Shown in pieces: positions 4,777-49,506 of a stretch of 64,000 nucleotides of DNA. The notes beneath the pieces were generated by a model that worked only from the letters and a program-made list of their open reading frames with translations, made no database searches and had not been told where the DNA came from. A program made the translations under genes and the position numbers. Every line of letters starts with the position of its first letter. Within the stretch, counting starts at the first letter, position 1. This DNA is from Podarcis vaucheri (taxonomy: Eukaryota). The stretch is from assembly GCA_965113315.1 (NCBI GenBank), contig OZ220369.1. One strand, given 5' to 3'.

Positions 4777-6540
4777 CACAATGGGCCGCTACAAGTGGAA
4801 GAAAGCATTTTTCAATACTACACACACACAGGCACGCAAATTAAAAAAACCAAGCACAGTGGGGAAAAGCCTGGGAAATAACCTTCCTCCCTGATATCCT
4901 AGTTTTCTCTTTGCAAGGAGTTTATTATGCACAGAAAACCACTGAGACGCTAAACGCTTTCTGCCTTCCAGAGTACACAACATATGGCTAGATGGACAAA
5001 TATGTCACTCTTCCCCCAGCACAAGCAACAAGCTACTATTCCTGACTCAGTTATGCCCAAAATGGGGATCATTGTTTATTTCACTCCAAACAAACCACAA
5101 TGTTAAGCCAAGGTTTACTCTTGGCTTGCCAACAGCGGTTTGAGCTAAACAAACCACACACTTCAATTCGGACTTAACGCTAAGTTGGGGATTGGGGGTT
5201 TGATGGAGGTGTGAACTCCAGCCTTGTGGAAAACGGTTTGCTATGGTTTCCTATGGCGTGTGAACTGTGCCACTGCCTTGCCTTGAGGAATGGCCACAGC
5301 TCAGTGGCAGCACACACGTTTTGCATGCAAACTGTAATCTGGCATCCTCAGCCTGGGCTGGGAAATACTGTCTGAAACCCTGGAGAGCCACTAACTGGAG
5401 AGCTGGTTAGCCAAGGCACTTCTATTTTGTTATATCGTCGTATACCTCCAGCTGTGAAACCCAGGAAGTCCCCATCTAATGGGGTAAACCTACAGCAGCA
5501 CCACAAGTAACAAGTTCAGCCACTGAATCATGAAGCTCGCCACCTCTGAATGCTTTCTGATCCAGCTGTGTCTGCACCACTGCTCACATTTTGGGTTGAG
5601 CTGAAACGTTTGGGTTACGTGCTCCTAAAACTGCACATAGTCGCCGGGACAATCCATGCTTGTGTCCTTCCTTTGATTTTTGCAGGAACCTCCATTCAGC
5701 CAAGCAAATGCCTCAAATCTTCGCCAGCTGTTGTGTTGCAGAAGCCTAATTAAGAGCAAATGCTCACATGGATCCACCATGCTTGCAAGGCTGTTAGAAA
5801 TGCATTTTTGTTTTCTGCTGGGGGGGGGGAGACTGGGGTGAAGCTCCAAGCAGATAATTAAAACTCAACTTTATAAGATTACATTACAACATAAGCCTGA
5901 TATAGCCTATTAAAATCCATTGAGATATATTACACCACAAAGCGCACACATAATCCTCCATCCAGCTTCCAAGCAGCAACAAATTTACCTGGCGAAATGA
6001 CATCCTAGTGCAACATGGAAGGCACAAAGGCCAAATGACTATGGTGGGACCTTAGTGGAAGAACCAGGGCACCCTATTGCTTTCTCCTAAACTGCAGTCA
6101 ACAGCAAAAAGAAATGTCTGTGCACAAAAAGACAAAGACTTCCACTCTATAGAATGGATGGCACAAACATACAGTGGTTTATGAACCAGCAAGGCGATAC
6201 AGGGGTTAGAGTTTTGAACTGGGAGATCCAGGTTCAAATCCCCACTCAACCATGAAGTTCAGATTTGGTCTCTCCTTTCCCCTTTTTCTCTTTTATTGAA
6301 GAACAACAGGATATTTTAATGCCATCATCATCACAGAGGTGTCTGTGGAGGGGATATATTCACTGAAAATGTTATCTTGTTTTTCTTTTAGTTTTTTTTA
6401 AAAAGGAACCTGTTTGTTAAGTCTGGCACCAGACTTCTATATATATCCCTGCCACTCTGTAGGTTTTCTTAATAATAATTACTATTGTTTATATGCCGCC
6501 ACCTGACTGGGTTGCCCAGAGAGCCATGTTTTTGACATAT

Positions 6541-6545
<5 letters not shown>

Positions 6546-6592
<47 letters not shown>
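6546..6592. repeat. (TA)n microsatellite; further tracts at 6951..6992 and 11946..12005
   Basis: Directly visible. Confidence 0.98.
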
Positions 6593-6598
<6 letters not shown>

Positions 6599-6948
6599 AA
6601 GGTACCCCTGCCCGAACGGGCCAGTCTTGACAGACTCTGGGGTTTGTGCGCCCATCTCACTCAAGAGGCCGGGGGCCAGCGCTGTCCGGAGACACTTCCG
6701 GGTCACGTGGCCAGCGTGACAAAGCTGCATCTGGCGAGCCAGCACAGCACACGGAACGCCGTTTACCTTCCCGCTGGTAAGCGGTACCTATTTATCTACT
6801 TGCACCCGGGGGTGCTTTCGAACTGCTAGGTTGGCAGGCGCTGGGACCGAGCAGCGGGAGCGCACCCCGCCACGGGGATTCGAACTGCCGACCTTTCGAT
6901 CGGCAAGCCCTAGGCGCTGAGGCTTTAACCCACAGCGCCACCCGCGTC

Positions 6949-6950
<2 letters not shown>
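6593..6950 (-). mobile_element. Sauria SINE (divergent subfamily) inserted in (TA)n
   Basis: Head GGGACGCGGGTGGCGCTGTGG, B-box GTTCGAATCC, (ACCTTT)-type tail. Confidence 0.9.
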
Positions 6951-6995
<45 letters not shown>

Positions 6996-7044
6996 GGTTT
7001 TGGTGTCTTCGGGTGTCTTCCCGTGTAAGAGTCGGGGTGTCTGT

Positions 7045-7082
7045 GCGACGTTTCGACGAGGTCTCACTCGTCATCTTCAGGC
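7045..7082 (-). ncRNA. Identical minimal hammerhead ribozyme motif in the left arm
   Basis: Reverse complement of 11824..11861. Confidence 0.75.
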
Positions 7083-7314
7083 TGGTGCTTTCGGCTTCTT
7101 GTTACTGGAACAGAGCAGAGTCTGGTGTTTGAGTTCCTATAAATACTGTTGAGGGGTGTGGTGTATAGCCTCCAACGTTCTGGGCAGAGAGGAAGTTCCT
7201 AGATTAGTGTGCCTTTTCTTCTTTTGTTCCTTAATTACTTGAGGGATATCTTGAGTGATTTCATGAGTGATATTCTGAATACCACTGGGTGGGTCATTAA
7301 GTGTAGATTAGTTG

Positions 7315-8344
7315 CTAAAGCTTTCGTGTCTTGACCTCTTGAGCTTGTGAAGAGTTTTTCTGAGAAGATGGCTGTGCTGCATTTAGTTGTGCTCTGGCTT
7401 GGCTTCGTGTATAGGGGCGAGCTGTGGTTTTGTGCCTTGTGCCAGCCAGATCTGTGTAGGGATTGCAGGGGGGTGCAGCATCCGGAGGTGCCACTATAGT
7501 TTGGCTACTGGATGGAGTCTGTAATATGTCTGTGGAGAGGGTCTGGGTTTGGGTCTGGTGTGGTTGATTGGTGACGGCGTTCTGTGTGCCTCTGGTTCTG
7601 GTGTCGGTTTTTGTGGGGAGGGCTAATTTCCAGATGTCTGGCAGGCGGGACGTGTCGTCACGCTTGTTCATGTTGTGAGGGTGTTTCTCTATCTCGATGG
7701 CTTCCATGATTATTCTCTTGTGGTGATGTTCCATGTTAAAGAGCAATTTGGAATCTGCAAAATTAATTTCGTGTCCTGTTTCTTTCATGTGTTGGAAAAG
7801 AGAGGAAGTTTTTTCTTCTTTTTTGACGGCATTCTTGTGTTCTGCGATACGTGCATTTATTCGTCTGTTTGTTTGTCCAATGTACGTGGCTGGGCAGACT
7901 TTGCAGGGTATTTCATAGACCCCTTGGTTTTCCAGCTGGATTTTGTCTTTTGGGTTTCTGAGGATATTGGCTATTTTTTGGTTGGTGCAGAAGGCTGTTT
8001 TGATATTGTGTTTATGGAGGATTTTGCTGATTTTGTCTGTAGTGCCCTTGATATAAGGAAGGAGGGCCATGCCATTGTTTTCTTCTGTGTCTTGGTTTTT
8101 GGGGGGTGTTTCTTTTTGGATTAGCTTTGTAACCCTGTTTTTCTGGTATCCATTGGCGATTAACACATTTGAGAGATTCTGTAACTCAGTTGTCAAGTGG
8201 TCTTTGTCAGCCAGGCGTTTGGTTCTGGAGATGAGAGTCTTGGCTACGGAGTTTATTTGTGCAGGGTGGTGGTGTGATTGTGCATGTAAGTAGCGGTTGG
8301 TGTGTGTTTTTTTCTGGTAGATAGTGTGTCCTAGGGAGCCATCA
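7315..8344 (-). CDS. Penelope-like element ORF fragment (end of RT, linker, GIY-YIG endonuclease), left inverted arm
   Basis: ORF 7315..8196 contains GVYEIPCKVCPATYIGQT...R...EH...H...E...N GIY-YIG motifs; homology continues to the junction at 8344. Confidence 0.9.
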
Positions 8345-8986
8345 ATACCTACATCCCGATGACCTACTTGTGAGCTTCGATGTTGTATCTCTCTTCACTC
8401 AAGTGCCCATTAATGAAGCCTTGACAGCCATTCAAAACAAATACAACCCCCCCAAATACATCCTGGACCTGACCAACCACTGCCTAACCAACACATACTT
8501 CATCCACAATGGACAAAGATACAAACAGATAGAAGGAGCACCTATGGGATCACCCCTCTCACCGGTCATCGCAAATTTGTACATGGAACACTTTGAAACC
8601 AATGCTTTAGACAAGTCAGAACACAAACCCAAACTTTGGCTCAGATATGTTGACGACACCTTTGTAATTTGGCCACACGGGAAAGAAAAACTAGATAGCT
8701 TCCTCACACATCTCAACAGCCTACACCCCAAAATACAATTCACTATGGAAATAGAAGACAACAACCAACTCCCCTTTCTTGACGTCCTAATCTACAAAAA
8801 ACCTGATGGCTCCCTAGGACACACTATCTACCAGAAAAAAACACACACCAACCGCTACTTACATGCACAATCACACCACCACCCTGCACAAATAAACTCC
8901 GTAGCCAAGACTCTCATCTCCAGAACCAAACGCCCGGCTGACAAAGACCACTTGACAACTGAGTTACAGAATCTCTCAAATGTGTT
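8345..8986 (+). CDS. Penelope-like reverse transcriptase, 5'-truncated and interrupted by an insertion
   Basis: SFDVVSLFT, GAPMGSPLSPVIANLYMEHFE, WLRYVDDTF, LPFLDV and TNRYLHAQSHHHP are PLE-type RT motifs. Confidence 0.93.
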
Positions 8987-10726
8987 TTTTTTTTTTATAA
9001 TCATATTTATTAAAATTTAACAGAGTAGAAAAGATAAAAAAGATAAAGAAAAGAAAGAAAAAGAGAGACTAGCTTAGACCCTTCTTTTCATAACCTTCTT
9101 TCTGGGACTTCCTCCTTCCCCTCCCGACTGTATTCCCCTTTCCCTAAGTTGGTTCCACAAGTTCTCATCCCCAAATTTAAGCCTAATATATATTACTCAT
9201 AAACCAATTTAAATTTACACAATCTTAACATCACTCCTCGTCTTATAATAAAACAAATTTTTCCCCCAAGATCAGCTCTCATTCCTTCCACGAGTTCCCC
9301 CTTTCTAAAAAAGGAAAAAACGAAAACATATTAGATCAAAGTTATAAAGAATATAAGATAGAATATATAGAAAAGTTCAAAAAATTGGTTACAAAGCCTT
9401 TGGATTCTAGGGTTCCCCCTCCCTTCCCCGGTTTTGATTCCCCATGTCCATTTGTCTGTATGTTGTCGGCCTGGAGATCTTAAGTCCACAGCCAAATTTT
9501 TCTCAGTCCATCTTGCCGGTTTCTTCAGATTTGGTTGTTTTAATAATATTTAACTTCATAAATCCAGTCTAATAGAGGCCTTTAATTTTCCTTAATCTTT
9601 TGTTGCTCCTCCCGTTGTTCTTTCCGTGTCGTATTTAGTCATTTACTCTTTTGCTTCTTGTTTTCTCCGGTTTCTGTCTTGTTCAGCTGTCAAAACATTC
9701 TTGTTTCAAAACTTAGTGTCTCTACAGAGGTTTGTTATTCAGGGACAAGGACTTACGTCCAGTTCCTTTCTTGCTTCAATAGAAGATTCTATTGTATTAT
9801 GGTCACCTCTGTAGACAAAATAATATTTCAGTTCTGCAGCTTTCCCAAGAGATAAGACCTATGCACATCCCAGAGTAGTTTTCCACATACGACACTTGTA
9901 ATGTCCCGAAACCCCTCTAGGGGGATTGCAATAACTTTGTATCCTCTAATCCAAAAGTCAATTTGTTGTTTCTTTTTCCCCGACAGTTTATATCCATATT
10001 TATATCAAATTGTAGCAAAATTAACCAGCAAAGAAAAACTTGTAGCAAAGTCCTCTTTATATTTTCCAGCTTTGACAGCTCCTTTGGCAGCTGTCAAATT
10101 CTCCATCTCTCTTCGCCAGGCTCTCCGAATCGCCCCGGTTCCCAGGGGGGGGGGTTGTCTTTTTCCTCTCACCCTCAACTCTTCTCCTCCAGCACAGTTC
10201 TTATAGTTCACATCGTGGAGTTAATAATTTTTGTCATCAATAAACTTCTGAATCGATCTTGGTTTCTCAGTCCTTGTTTTAGCATGTTTACAATCAGGGA
10301 GGGGACTGACTTCCTTTTTGGATCCCCTCCCGCTCGTGCCAAATCCGGAAAAAATTTTCTTTTTTCCTCCTTTTATGCCCGGTTACCCAATTACTCACGG
10401 GTTGTTGTTAATTGTCCGAATTTTCTTTGGAAGAAGCCAGCGCTCTCCGCCGGATGGCATGCGGCTGCGCCCGGCAGGGGAAGCGGAGGACTCAAAGCAC
10501 CACGCCACTCCCCGGCGCCCGATCCGTAGCCTTTAAAAAGGCTCCTTCACAAGCCGGGAGGGCGATAACGGTGCCAGCCGAGTCACCATGTCCACGGGAT
10601 CCGTTCCCGTGGTTTTTGAGGGTCCCCGCGTCGCCGGCGCGGTAGGACCCAACCCCTGCCGAGCCGACTCCCTCCGGAGCTCGGAGGGAGTCCGCCATTC
10701 GGCGATGGCGCTAACCCGGAAGTCTC
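8987..10726 (-). mobile_element. Non-autonomous L1-type retroposon nested in the Penelope element
   Basis: 18-bp TSD GAATCTCTCAAATGTGTT (8969..8986, 10727..10744), AATAAA plus A-tail on the minus strand, TGTT/AA target, GC-rich 5' end starting GAGACTTCCGGGTTAGCGCC...ATGGCGG, and no long sense ORF. Confidence 0.85.
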
Positions 10727-10744
10727 GAATCTCTCAAATGTGTT

Positions 10745-11591
10745 AATCGCCAATGGATACCAGAAAAACAGGGTTACGAAGCTAATCCAAAAAGAAACAC
10801 CCCCCAAAAACCAAGACACAGAAGAAAACAATGGCATGGCCCTCCTTCCTTATATCAAGGGCACTACAGACAAAATCAGCAAAATCCTCCATAAACACAA
10901 TATCAAAACAGCCTTCTGCACCAACCAAAAAATAGCCAATATCCTCAGAAACCCAAAAGACAAAATCCAGCTGGAAAACCAAGGGGTCTATGAAATACCC
11001 TGCAAAGTCTGCCCAGCCACGTACATTGGACAAACAAACAGACGAATAAATGCACGTATCGCAGAACACAAGAATGCCGTCAAAAAAGAAGAAAAAACTT
11101 CCTCTCTTTTCCAACACATGAAAGAAACAGGACACGAAATTAATTTTGCAGATTCCAAATTGCTCTTTAACATGGAACATCACCACAAGAGAATAATCAT
11201 GGAAGCCATCGAGATAGAGAAACACCCTCACAACATGAACAAGCGTGACGACACGTCCCGCCTGCCAGACATCTGGAAATTAGCCCTCCCCACAAAAACC
11301 GACACCAGAACCAGAGGCACACAGAACGCCATCACCAATCAACCACACCAGACCCAAACCCAGACCCTCTCCACAGACATATTACAGACTCCATCCAGTA
11401 GCCAAACTATAGTGGCACCTCCGGATGCTGCACCCCCCTGCAATCCCTACACAGATCTGGCTGGCACAAGGCACAAAACCACAGCTCGCCCCTATACACG
11501 AAGCCAAGCCAGAGCACAACTAAATGCAGCACAGCCATCTTCTCAGAAAAACTCTTCACAAGCTCAAGAGGTCAAGACACGAAAGCTTTAG
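10745..11591 (+). CDS. Penelope-like GIY-YIG endonuclease region, continuation of the RT ORF after the insertion
   Basis: Removing the insertion and one TSD copy restores LTTELQNLSNVLIANGY in frame, as seen uninterrupted in the left arm. Confidence 0.9.
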
Positions 11592-11823
11592 CAACTAATC
11601 TACACTTAATGACCCACCCAGTGGTATTCAGAATATCACTCATGAAATCACCCAAGATATCCCTCAAGTAATTAAGGAACAAAAGAAGAAAAGGCACACT
11701 AATCTAGGAACTTCCTCTCTGCCCAGAACGTTGGAGGCTATATACCACACCCCTCCACAGTATTTATAGGAACTCAAACACCAGATTCTGCTCTGTTCCA
11801 GTAACAAGAAGCCGAAAGCACCA

Positions 11824-11861
11824 GCCTGAAGATGACGAGTGAGACCTCGTCGAAACGTCGC
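11824..11861 (+). ncRNA. Minimal type I hammerhead ribozyme motif in the Penelope pseudo-LTR
   Basis: CTGAAGA (11826-32), T, stem II GACGAG/CTCGTC, GAAA (11852-55), CGTC. Stem III is reduced to the palindrome ACGT. Stem I has only about 2 obvious bp. Confidence 0.75.
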
Positions 11862-11942
11862 ACAGACACCCCGACTCTTACACGGGAAGACACCCGAAGA
11901 CACCAAAACCTGCATTCCTGTACCCGTGAAAATCTACGAAAG

Positions 11943-12008
<66 letters not shown>

Positions 12009-13720
12009 ACCCAGGATTTTAACTGATACCTGCTGCTTTTTGTATTTTTACTGTTGCTACGATAACTGCTTTTGTTTCTGATGTTTCTAATCTGCTTTAT
12101 ATTTGTTTTATGTTTCTATTTAATTAAAAATTTATTTATTTTTAAAGTTCAGCAGCTGATATTGTGGCAGTCACTATCTCAGCCTTATTTTCCTCACAGG
12201 AGACAAAATCTTGTGGAGACAAAACGGAGTATCCCTTTATTTAATTTAGCACAGAGATTTCTTGGCTTGTGGAAATTCCTGACCAGGCTCAGATCACATG
12301 TAAGCTACCTGGTGTTGCCCTGCGATTAACAACTGGTGCACACAAGGTATGTTATGCCTTCCACATAGCTGGTCCAGCCCATCCGTTACTGCACACATGA
12401 ATGAAGAAAGCGAAAGGTGGACATATTCAGGTGCCTATATCCAGTGATAAGGAACCTCTGGCCCAACTGGCCTCCCCACTTAGCTTGCAAGTTCCTATGC
12501 CTGATGACATTTATAATGGCAAGTTGGGGGAGCAGAGAAATATGCAGCTCCCCCAAGAACAGATTGGCAAGCACTGCTGATCATCAGCAACTGCAAAGGA
12601 ATATGGGTTGCTTGATATCATTGTGACATCATGTGACTGACAGGTGCGTAACCCTACCCAATGGTCAAACGTGGCCTGTGGGAGTGGCCTACCAGTTGGA
12701 CCCCATTCCACTCCCTGCATTCTTCTGAATCAGATTATCTGGCCTGTCTAGCTCAGCATTCACTTTTCTGACAGGCAGAAACTCTTTCACCTGATCCTCT
12801 TATAGCTAGAGATGCCAGCGGCTGAACCTGGGACATTCAGCATGGATGGCTTTGAGTTACTGGGGGACCAACAATGGGATAGGTCAGTTGGCTTAATGTC
12901 CCACAACCCCCACTAAATTCTCTGAACACCTGCATGCCAGCCCTATAAAATTCATCCGATGCAGCATTCTCACTTCCAAGTTAATAATAATAATTTTTAT
13001 TCGATTGTGGTGTCAAGTTTGGTTTCCTAGAATAAACAAAAGTACGACTTCAACTCTGGCGACTTCCATATGCAACAGCAGTTAAGTGCTCTTTCACTCC
13101 ACTGAATAGAATTTGCTGTTCTGAATGAAGCTGACTTCTGCCTGATCATGCGAATGAGGACTGAACACAAGAAGTGACCGGAAATAAACACAAAGGAGTC
13201 AATGATTGCACCAACAGAGCTCTGAAGAATTACAAGGAGGGTATAAGCGTAGCTCACTTTAATGAAAGTGTAGGTAAATCTAATTAAATAGTTGTGATTG
13301 AGAATCTCCCAGCATGCACACACATTATTATTATTATTATTATTATACTATGGTGCCATATGGCTTGAGTTCACATTTACTAGGGCAAAAAGTCTCACCA
13401 CTCAATCTCCTGAAATTTCAAATACATCCACCTCTCCACAAAAACATCTGATATTCAGTTTCTAGGGGGAAAGACTGAGTTCCCCACTGTGAAGAAAAGG
13501 TTACTAAACTGGATGGTTCATTGGTCTGATCTTATGTTCTTACAAATTATGGCTTCTCCCCAGTACTGATGTCTTGGTCTGCATTCTGTTTTTCTCTAAA
13601 ACATTTCTTTCGACTGAGGATTCCAAGGCAGCTTGTAGATGATTCTGAGTGGCTGAGTCCAGGCCCAAATGCCTTTTGTGAAATACACACTTTTAAGAAA
13701 ATAAACTATTTGATTTACTA

Positions 13721-30569: not shown

Positions 30570-32120
30570 AAATCCGATGCGCACCTCCTTGCTCGCAACT
30601 CCCACTGCGTGACGTTTACTTCTGAGTAAAGCATGGCTAGGATCGGGCCGGAAGCCGATCCCTTTCGCCTGCGCTTGCATCCTTGGGAACGGTGCACCAT
30701 CCCCGACTCTTACCGCCAAGCCGTTTTTTCTACGAAGCATTTCCTCTGCAGGAAAGGGCCCGGCCTCTCCTAGAGACACCCGGGCAGAAACTTGGATGCT
30801 TGGGAAGTTCCCAGAGCGAGCGAACGAGAGAGCGAGAGCGATCCTCAGCCTTCTCTCTCTCTCTCTCTATCCCAAGCTAAGATTTCAAGGGCAAAAACAT
30901 AACAAAAAAAGAAAAGTAGTAGTCATCCTTTTTTTTAAAAAAAAAAGATGAAAACGAACCCAGCCACAGGAAACCCTCCCAGTTTCCAGTCGCTAATTAG
31001 TTTTTTTAAGGGTCTGTCTACACACACTGGCAACTTGAACAAAGCGGATGCCTTGAATTCCTTCCCAGCCCCAGCTTGGTTTTGGCAGAAGCCCATCTTG
31101 GAGCCCAGAAATCAGCCCAGGAGGAGGAGGAGGAGGCGGAAAAGGGCGATCGGGAGGCAGGGAGGAAGAGCCCCCCGCAACTTCCCCTCCTGCCCTGACC
31201 CCCAAAGCGCACCCCGATCCCACCCTGACTCAACTCACACATAGCAAACCCCACCCCACCCCACCAAAAAATAAATAAAAAATCCCCTCGCCTACCTCCT
31301 TCTTCTCCCCGCCGAATCCGCCACCTTTTTCCTTCCCCTAAGGAACTTAGCCGGGAATCGAAGGATCCAAGTCCGCCAAGGACTTTCTGGAGGAGCGGCG
31401 AAGGCGTCGGTAGCAGCCGCGCCGCCAACCAGCAGCAATTGCAGTTGCAGCAGCTGCAGCCCGGAGTTTCGTCGCCTCAGGCTGCGGCAGCGGAGACCCC
31501 CGGGGCCCCCCACTCCGCGATGCGCGGCGGCGGCGGCGGCCCGCTTGGATCCGGCCCGCTCGCAGGGCTGCAGTGCTGGGGCTCCTCCTGACAATGAGAG
31601 GCGGGGAGCAGCAGCAGCAGCCCCTGCTGGCGGGCGGGCGGGCGGCCCTGACGTCAGGAGGAAGGAGAAGGGTGGATGAGAAGGAGGAGGAGAAAAGGAG
31701 GGCCTGGCCGCTCGCCTCGCCTCCGCAGACTTCCCCCCAGCCGCCTTCTCTTGCTTGCTTCCCTCGCCCGCCAAAGTAGGGCCGCCTCGCGCGCCGCATT
31801 CGAGCCAGGACTCGCAAGGTCCCGCGCAGAAGCGCGGTCGTGAGGAGGGTTGCCCTCCTCCCCGTGTCAGCGCCACGCGCGGACCGCGGCTCCTTAAAAG
31901 GCAACACTTTTCCTCCTCCTCTGAGGAAGGTTTCGCGCGTTCCATTTGCTGCCTTTCCTTTCCTAAGCCCGCCTTCCCCCCCCCCACTCCCTCGGCGTTG
32001 CTTCTTTCTTGCTCCTTTCCCTTCCTCGCGCGTTTGTCCTCAGAGTGAGGTAGGTTAGGGTGAGCGAGACTTAGCCGCAAAGTCACGCAAGCGAGCGGGG
32101 GGCGGGGGGAGGTTCAGCTC
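30570..32120 (-). promoter_or_regulatory. CpG island, promoter/first non-coding exon of a neighbouring gene (probably LUZP1)
   Basis: Very GC/CpG-rich with (GGC)n runs and GC boxes, palindromic CRE cctgacgtcagg (TGACGTCA 31649..31656), E2F-like TTTCGCGC 31931..31938, and a candidate minus-strand donor GAG|GTAGGC at 31296/31295. Gene identity and strand are inferred only from the recalled vertebrate order HTR1D-LUZP1-KDM1A. Confidence 0.65.
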
Positions 32121-48238: not shown

Positions 48239-49375
48239 CTAGGAGCACTTCTTAAACCGAATCATTTTCTGAAAAGCCTGTTTGAAGTCTTCGTTAAAGG
48301 CAGTATATATCACAGGGTTGATCAGCGAGTTCAGGTAGCCTAGCCATGTGAAAATGTCAAGCAGAATGGGATGAGACCAGCAAGCTTCGTGACAGATAGG
48401 CAGGACTAAAGACACCACAAAGAATGGGAGCCAGCAGAAAATGAACGCTCCTAAAATAATCCCCAGAGTTTTTGTGGCTTTTCTTTCCCGGGCCGCTGAA
48501 ATCCGTTTCCTCTCCAGGATGCTATCGGCGACTTTGATCCTTACGTGGTTGATTAATACTGGGGAGCTGCTGGAATGAGAATGCCCTTCCTGAAGGTTTG
48601 AGCTGAGGGAGCAGAGGGAGGAGCCTGCTGAGCCAGTGATCAGGTGGGCCGTGGTAAATCGCTTCCCGTACAGCGATGGCGGCTTAAGAATCCGGGACCG
48701 AGCGGCCACGTAAATCCTACCGTAGAGGATGATGAGCAGCACCGTTGGGATATAGAAGGCGCCGCAGGTGGAGTAAATGGTGTAGGAGATCTGATCCGTA
48801 TTCACGACGCAGTGCAGTATTTCTTCCTGAGCTTTGGCTTGTCTCCAGAAAAGGGGCGGCATGGAGATGCAGATGGAAATGACCCAAACCACAGTGATCA
48901 TCAAGGCGGCTCTGCTGGCAGTCCGGCGCTTGGTATATTCGAGAGCATCCGTGATGGCCCAGTACCGGTCCAAGGCAATCACGCAAAGGTGCAAGATGGA
49001 GGCCGTACAGCAGGTGATGTCTGAGGACAACCAGATGTCGCACATGATTTGGCCAAAGTTCCATTCGTGGCTAATGGTGTAAGCAATGCTGATTGGCATG
49101 ACCAGGATGGACACTAAAAGGTCAGTGGCAGCCAAAGAGCCAATGAGGTAATTTGCAGGAGTGTGGAGTTTCCTGGTCAGAATGATGGTGATGATCACAA
49201 ACATATTGAAGAGCATTGTCGCCAGAGTGATCACAGCCAAGATGGCGGCAAGCGAAACCTTTAGGCCTAGCAGCGTCCCCTCATCCCACTCCTCTGGCAT
49301 TTCACTGGCATTGAGAGATCTGTTTGACATGCTGAGGAGAATAGACTTTGCAGACCAGTTGTACTGGGTCTTCAT
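48239..49375 (-). CDS. HTR1D: 5-hydroxytryptamine (serotonin) receptor 1D, class A GPCR, single coding exon
   Basis: 378-aa ORF with seven hydrophobic segments and aminergic GPCR motifs: D3.32 ([10 protein letters not shown]), DRY (ALDRYWAIT), CWLPFF, NPVIY. N-terminal [21 protein letters not shown] and ICL3 [25 protein letters not shown] match vertebrate 5-HT1D rather than 5-HT1B as I recall them. Confidence 0.97.
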
Positions 49376-49506
49376 GGCTGTGTTGGATTCCTCCCCTCCT
49401 CTTTTGAACTTAATCCTTTACATATACTTGATAACGTCTGTCTCGGTCTTTAACGAAACCAGGTTTTCTGAACTAGATCTTCGAGGTTGGTAAAAAAAGC
49501 ACGCCA
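49376..49506 (-). other. HTR1D: 5' UTR portion of the HTR1D coding exon, with splice acceptor at 49506/49507
   Basis: Minus strand reads ttgtctttgcttctgtttcacag|tggcg (pyrimidine tract + CAG), with TTAAT branch-like motifs just upstream. Confidence 0.7.

Follow-up and report, generated by a model that had tools for sequence, protein, structure and literature searches.

A minimal hammerhead over the start codon of a Podarcis Penelope-like retrotransposon and insertion junctions that suggest its rare cleavage in vivo

A young Penelope/Poseidon-type retrotransposon of Podarcis vaucheri carries a minimal type I hammerhead in its pseudo-LTR. Here we describe this motif together with traces in the genomic copies of the family that quite probably record its rare cleavage in vivo, in a minority of transcripts. 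The motif lies at 11824-11861 (+) of a 64,000-nt stretch of contig OZ220369.1 (the window). Because the family has more than 11,000 near-identical copies, its insertion junctions can be used as a map of RNA ends; this map points to a start site at element position -41 and, more weakly, to the cut at +28/+29. The motif, its overlap with an AUG, the inversion and the tail are already in print, and the interest rests on the family-wide cut signal rather than on this locus. Indeed, passages in earlier work call the in vivo cutting and the purpose of minimal hammerheads in Penelope-like elements (PLEs) "still a mystery" (PMC7761336) and "still unclear" (PMC8557442), and a search of the open-access literature, with subscription papers outside its scope, returned no paper in which a PLE hammerhead cut is supported by evidence from genomes or living cells.

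The motif and its element

With the A at 11832 numbered +1 and 11831 numbered 0, the hammerhead core spans 11826-11859, and an identical hammerhead, located by sequence identity and by descriptor search, lies in an inverted arm at 7045-7082 (-; core 7047-7080), in agreement with the sequence and coordinates of the original prediction. The site carries the CUGANGA, GAAA and UH elements that a minimal hammerhead (min-HHR) core requires, with C3 at 11826, A9 at 11832, an extra U at 11833, G12 to A15.1 at 11852-11855, C15.2 at 11856, G16.2 at 11857, U16.1 at 11858 and C17 at 11859. Stem II pairs 11834-11839 with 11846-11851 (6 bp), including the G10.1-C11.1 pair next to the extra nucleotide after A9; stem I is formed by C11825-G11860 and G11824-C11861 alone; and stem III is reduced to the ACGU palindrome at 11855-11858 (palindromic 15.2-16.2, no helix III loop), so that, as had been anticipated, a monomer lacks it. 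The predicted cut falls between 11859 and 11860, that is, between +28 and +29. Folding gave pair probabilities of 0.90-0.99 for stem II and of at most 0.19 for stem I, whose weakness (about 2 bp) had likewise been foreseen, and a competing hairpin that covers the cut site. A double hammerhead came out at -19.1 kcal/mol vs -22.6 kcal/mol for two monomers, i.e. 3.5 kcal/mol worse, and a longer stem I pairing the leader with the 3' flank was rejected at a probability of at most 0.044.

The hammerhead search proposed beforehand gave a divided answer: a minimal-hammerhead descriptor found two sites in the window, both of them the known copies, and none in 100 shuffled windows, while Rfam returned no hammerhead family among 33 matches up to E=10 at positions 6000-13000. 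The two copies are not independent evidence, because they stem from one duplication; of 1189 positions, 6 are different between the inverted arms, all outside the motif.

The original assignment to a PLE pseudo-LTR is borne out by reverse transcriptase (RT) and GIY-YIG domains and by a tandem-unit ORF. Exact copies of the 34-nt core number 11,140 across the 1.6-Gb genome (reversed-pattern controls, 0), and at one locus (L038) a 2961-bp tandem unit holds an intact 906-aa RT/GIY-YIG ORF (RVT_1, E=7e-15; GIY-YIG, E=0.001, below Pfam's cut-off). EN+ Penelope-like elements are marked by one ORF in which GIY-YIG lies C-terminal to RT, a pseudo-LTR from a partial tandem, an inverted 5' copy and an optional tail, and this family shows all of these. 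Furthermore, the 90 aa that precede the GIY motif contain 1 Cys, and the linker has no Cys-rich motif, which by the criterion described in PMC8557442 fits the Penelope/Poseidon type at the level of sequence. A search of solved protein chains yielded no PLE structure and four distant RTs as matches.

The 906-aa ORF starts at A9-U-G10.1 (11832-11834, +), and the extra U of the hammerhead therefore belongs to the start codon of the element, a reading that the original prediction had overlooked. In the window copy, the frame from this AUG enters (TA)n after 38 codons. Just beyond the motif, an A/C polymorphism at 11862 marks a subfamily, with C in 24 of 159 copies; relatives have C together with a second change at 11863.

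Conservation of the core across copies, which had been named as a check along with covariation, was found; covariation was not. In 159 flank-anchored copies the helices are invariant, single changes aside, and do not covary, and eight runs of contigs from relatives revealed neither covariation nor an extension of stem I. Other hammerhead families, searched genome-wide for covariation, gave 1 match vs 3 in controls. The core is conserved because the family is young, and its conservation does not amount to selection seen through covariation. In the relatives' contigs no change is listed in 11788-11861 while the flanks are changed, and changes begin just after the 2-bp stem I; a contig that spans the region has 9 changes, none of them in this interval (p about 0.013), a weak signal that promoter and coding constraint confound. 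Within the same contigs, we found no joint that would mark an intron with its end ahead of the ribozyme, the arrangement in D. virilis.

Insertion junctions as a probable map of RNA ends

The original prediction had pointed out a TATA-like box, TATTTATA, upstream of the ribozyme at 11761; it lies at 11761-11768 (+), and arm ends now mark it as a likely promoter. Genome-wide, 654 arms start at -41 (11790, +), the main pile-up of arm 5' ends, vs 14 at the control site -58, and in a sample 13 of 110 arms do so. Hand counts agree: the 50 of 610 junctions listed include 14 that are symmetric at -41 and 27 with an arm starting there, none reaching beyond, and 9 of 16 head-to-tail template jumps at the RNA start land on -41, with none upstream. 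Since -41 lies 29 nt downstream of TATTTATA, the box is likely to be the promoter and -41 the putative RNA start, as judged from genomic ends.

At the predicted cut, arm 5' starts were counted with matched patterns (two mismatches plus an 18-mer). In the main subfamily, 64 arms start at +29, compared with 29 at +26, 9 at +28, 15 at +30 and 18 at +31, and 25 start at -13, a control whose opening four bases match those of the cut product; a second subfamily adds 15 starts at +29, which gives 64 + 15 vs 9-29 at the five control sites. By hand tally of the 100 of 326 starts listed from an unbiased sample over 15 positions, +29 has 17 and +21 and +33 have 12 each. Exactly symmetric junctions number 12 at +29 and 1 at -13, and among the 50 of 78 junctions listed, the 4-nt palindromes ACGT and TCGA account for 3 and 0 vs 7 at +29. 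Without symmetric junctions, the excess over +26 is gone (36 vs 29, p=0.23).

The partner arm behaves differently at +29: its own start lies upstream in 10 of the 51 junctions there vs 26 of the 49 at control positions (Fisher p=8e-4), or p=0.015 once symmetric junctions are removed; set against +26 and +28 alone, the difference is not significant (10/37 vs 13/29, p=0.19). In this count, symmetric pairs entered once, matches at +30 and +31 were left out, L094 (no partner), L141 and L148 (both TA-joined) were dropped, L084 was set to +31 and L123 (-13) fell out. Microhomology also shapes junctions nearby, with hot spots joining +26 to +41 and +26 to +14.

Direct head-to-tail junctions from +107 to +182, searched with the start left free in the patterns, land on +29 in 8 of 8 cases (6 loci) and are mostly blunt; all eight are already contained in the 64 + 15 starts. 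The same search gave one (TA)-separated match at +32, and a further search gave none. At locus L157 (G000:C29:65332720-65333660), three pieces that start at +29 are chained, each following a 3' end (+147, +150 and +157), and three different 3' ends suggest several cut RNAs rather than one circle. Taken together, start counts, partner test and jumps make it likely that a physical 5' end of the RNA lies at +29, where the cut had been predicted, after the GUC at 11859.

Such ends would be rare. Roughly 99% of arms span the cut site uncut, and ends at the cut are about a tenth of those at the start site (79 vs 654, background included). Ribozyme-defined 3' ends were rejected, as only 4 matches end at the cut. 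With the site spanned by nearly all arms and 3' ends lying elsewhere, cutting is not required for insertion, as in Poseidon_Ac (PAc) of Anolis carolinensis. The jump partners at L157, L167, L178, L181 and L055 have their ends between +147 and +182 of the ORF. It seems that short transcripts of the 5' part of the ORF, ragged at the 3' end, are used as templates, near the 172 nt that PAc needs.

Inverted pairs and the insertion at this locus

Head-to-head pairs are the usual outcome of insertion in this family. Among neighbour pairs within 7 kb in the first 100 copies listed, 37 of 57 diverge, 11 are in tandem and 9 converge. For 40 of 44 clusters, 105 ends divide into short ones at +84 (51), long ones at +113-118 (50) and ends that run into the ORF (4), and 33 of 39 head-to-head pairs combine one short with one long end. 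A single fold-back with a fixed longer arm is disfavoured, since by eye either arm can be the longer one. Insertions are often chained at L031-L070, a new pair sitting in (TA)n beside an older one (e.g., L042, L070).

The locus in the window is one such insertion, lying between a (TA)n tract on its left (6951-6992) and another on its right (11947-12006), both from a repeat scan. Its inverted, 5'-truncated arm (6991-8344, -) holds RT thumb, GIY-YIG and pseudo-LTR and has a short end at +84. With a 2-nt overlap at the joint, the forward arm (8343-11949, +) starts with an RT fragment (8343-8986), is split by a 1740-bp insert and continues at 10727-11949 with thumb, GIY-YIG (stop codon at 11589-11591), pseudo-LTR and tail, ending at +118. 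The tail, the stretch between the 3' end sites +84 and +113 to +118, lies at 11916-11949 (+) in this arm only. Ends at +84 and +118 fall short of the 172 ORF bases that PAc needs as template, and both ribozymes are therefore likely passengers. Since the two motif copies diverge, any one transcript has at most a single sense copy, and no dimer can form in cis.

The insert that splits the forward arm (8987-10726, -) is a later, unrelated, poly(A)-tailed element flanked by an 18-bp target duplication (8969-8986 and 10727-10744). It has a GC-rich 5' end, recurs at the same full length at L203 and L204 (99.8-99.9%) and has at least 40 near-identical copies; it looks like a member of a young non-autonomous L1-like family, the L1 label being our presumption. 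Adjoining the left arm is a SINE-like repeat (6594-6950) with (TA)n on both sides and several copies in the window.

Relation to known systems and the likely role of the cut

Many of these features have precedents. Like the metazoan PLE min-HHRs described by Cervera and de la Pena (2014; PMC4209133), the motif combines the conserved core with an extra nucleotide between 9 and 10.1, G10.1-C11.1, a palindromic 15.2-16.2, a long helix II, thousands of dispersed copies and pairs on opposite strands. Unlike the usual 4-5 bp of helix I in that account, 2 bp are present here, as in its D. virilis variant; the Podarcis family is also nearly invariant, unlike the set in that study, whose relevant sections give no in vivo evidence. 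Monomers of this class are reported to be inactive and dimers weak in vitro (PMC4209133). The head-to-head inverted 5'-truncated copy and the 30-40 bp tail at one end resemble Adineta Pen2a/EN+ PLEs (PMC3846280; PMC8557442, Fig. 2 legend), inverted PLE copies with a one-sided tail being already published there, and the pseudo-LTRs of those elements likewise carry a TATA-like box and the first codons. D. virilis Penelope, in contrast to the TATA-like TATTTATA here, is described with a TATA-less internal promoter (PMC2377424). Head-to-head palindromes have been explained by self-priming on an antisense template (PMC3846280); the common stops at -41 and +29 would be better explained by a pair of cDNAs made on sense RNA than by such self-priming.

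The closest functional comparison is PAc (Frangieh et al. 2024; PMC11167929), where, by description rather than by alignment, the extra U of the hammerhead is also the U of the AUG. According to the sections of that paper on the ribozyme and the template, the PAc ribozyme needs protein in order to cleave, mutants of the ribozyme showed normal insertion in vitro, RT starts at 111-118, 172 ORF bases are needed as template and the protein is predicted to be a dimer. A term search of PMC11167929 gave no discussion of inverted insertions or palindromes. The systems differ in that the genomic copies here signal a cut and a TATA-linked start, whereas RNA-seq of PAc revealed no ends at the cut.

On balance, we favour a hammerhead that sits over the AUG, is off in most transcripts and cuts a minority of them in vivo, probably as a protein-assisted dimer, and would thereby act as a brake. 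Transcription would start at -41 from the promoter at TATTTATA, and translation at the AUG inside the ribozyme. RT would start internally at +84 and at +113-118, once for each side of the (TA)n cut, giving head-to-head arms; a cut after +28 would leave a 3' RNA that keeps these start sites and could be copied as far as the newly formed 5' end, +29. Since the cut is placed 28 nt past the start codon, a cleaved message would be silent, which speaks for a brake rather than a maturation step. Indeed, the capped leader of 69 nt, AUG included, would be lost on cleavage, and a cut within a tandem transcript would separate the ORF from its RT start sites; since either loss harms the element, a brake is the likeliest role. 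By analogy, a PAc-like protein dimer could join two ACGU palindromes. Only tentatively do we suggest the further step that two RNAs, held by the predicted dimeric protein, cut in trans through this palindrome, a feedback by which the element would remove its own cap and start codon.

We think it rather unlikely that the motif never cuts in vivo and is kept as start-codon context or as a protein-binding hairpin, with the +29 excess due to microhomology joins or RT pausing. The 2-bp stem I, the competing hairpin, the lack of covariation, the near equality of non-symmetric counts at +29 and +26 and the negative PAc RNA-seq all lean that way; yet the self-complementary centre at the cut measures just 2 nt, the four-base-matched -13 site and the longer palindromes ACGT and TCGA yield fewer symmetric junctions than +29, the template jumps onto +29 are mostly blunt, and +29 lies away from the foot of stem II (+20). 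Cleavage could, conversely, be obligatory, as in the model of Cervera and de la Pena (2014), releasing unit-length or circular RNA for transposition. This is improbable: the motif is unchanged in relatives and head-to-tail junctions onto +29 are present, but 3' ends lie at +84 or +113-118, away from the cut, all 11,140 core copies span the site intact, none of 30 fetched +29 arms runs into the ORF, and the ends of the jump partners fall at six separate positions, in contrast to a ligated circle.

Hardly credible to us is the initial idea that, in read-through transcripts, the ribozyme is regulated by its inverted copy, which would mask it as antisense. The arms show 99% complementarity along 1189 nt, and the modelled sense-antisense duplex of the motif reaches -66.6 kcal/mol, so that read-through RNA would be masked. 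Inversion is, however, the usual shape of insertion, both in this family and in the inverted copies described in PMC3846280 and PMC8557442, which makes masking a by-product that needs no regulation; moreover, the arm promoters would fire outwards from the antisense, and a monomer is predicted to be inactive in any case.

Elsewhere in the window, 31001-32000 forms a GC-rich island (64% GC), probably a host promoter, in which the long ORFs scanned had no Pfam match. An intact single-exon gene at 48239-49417 (-) encodes a rhodopsin-family GPCR (7tm_1, E=6e-74), which we take to resemble a serotonin 5-HT1D-type receptor.
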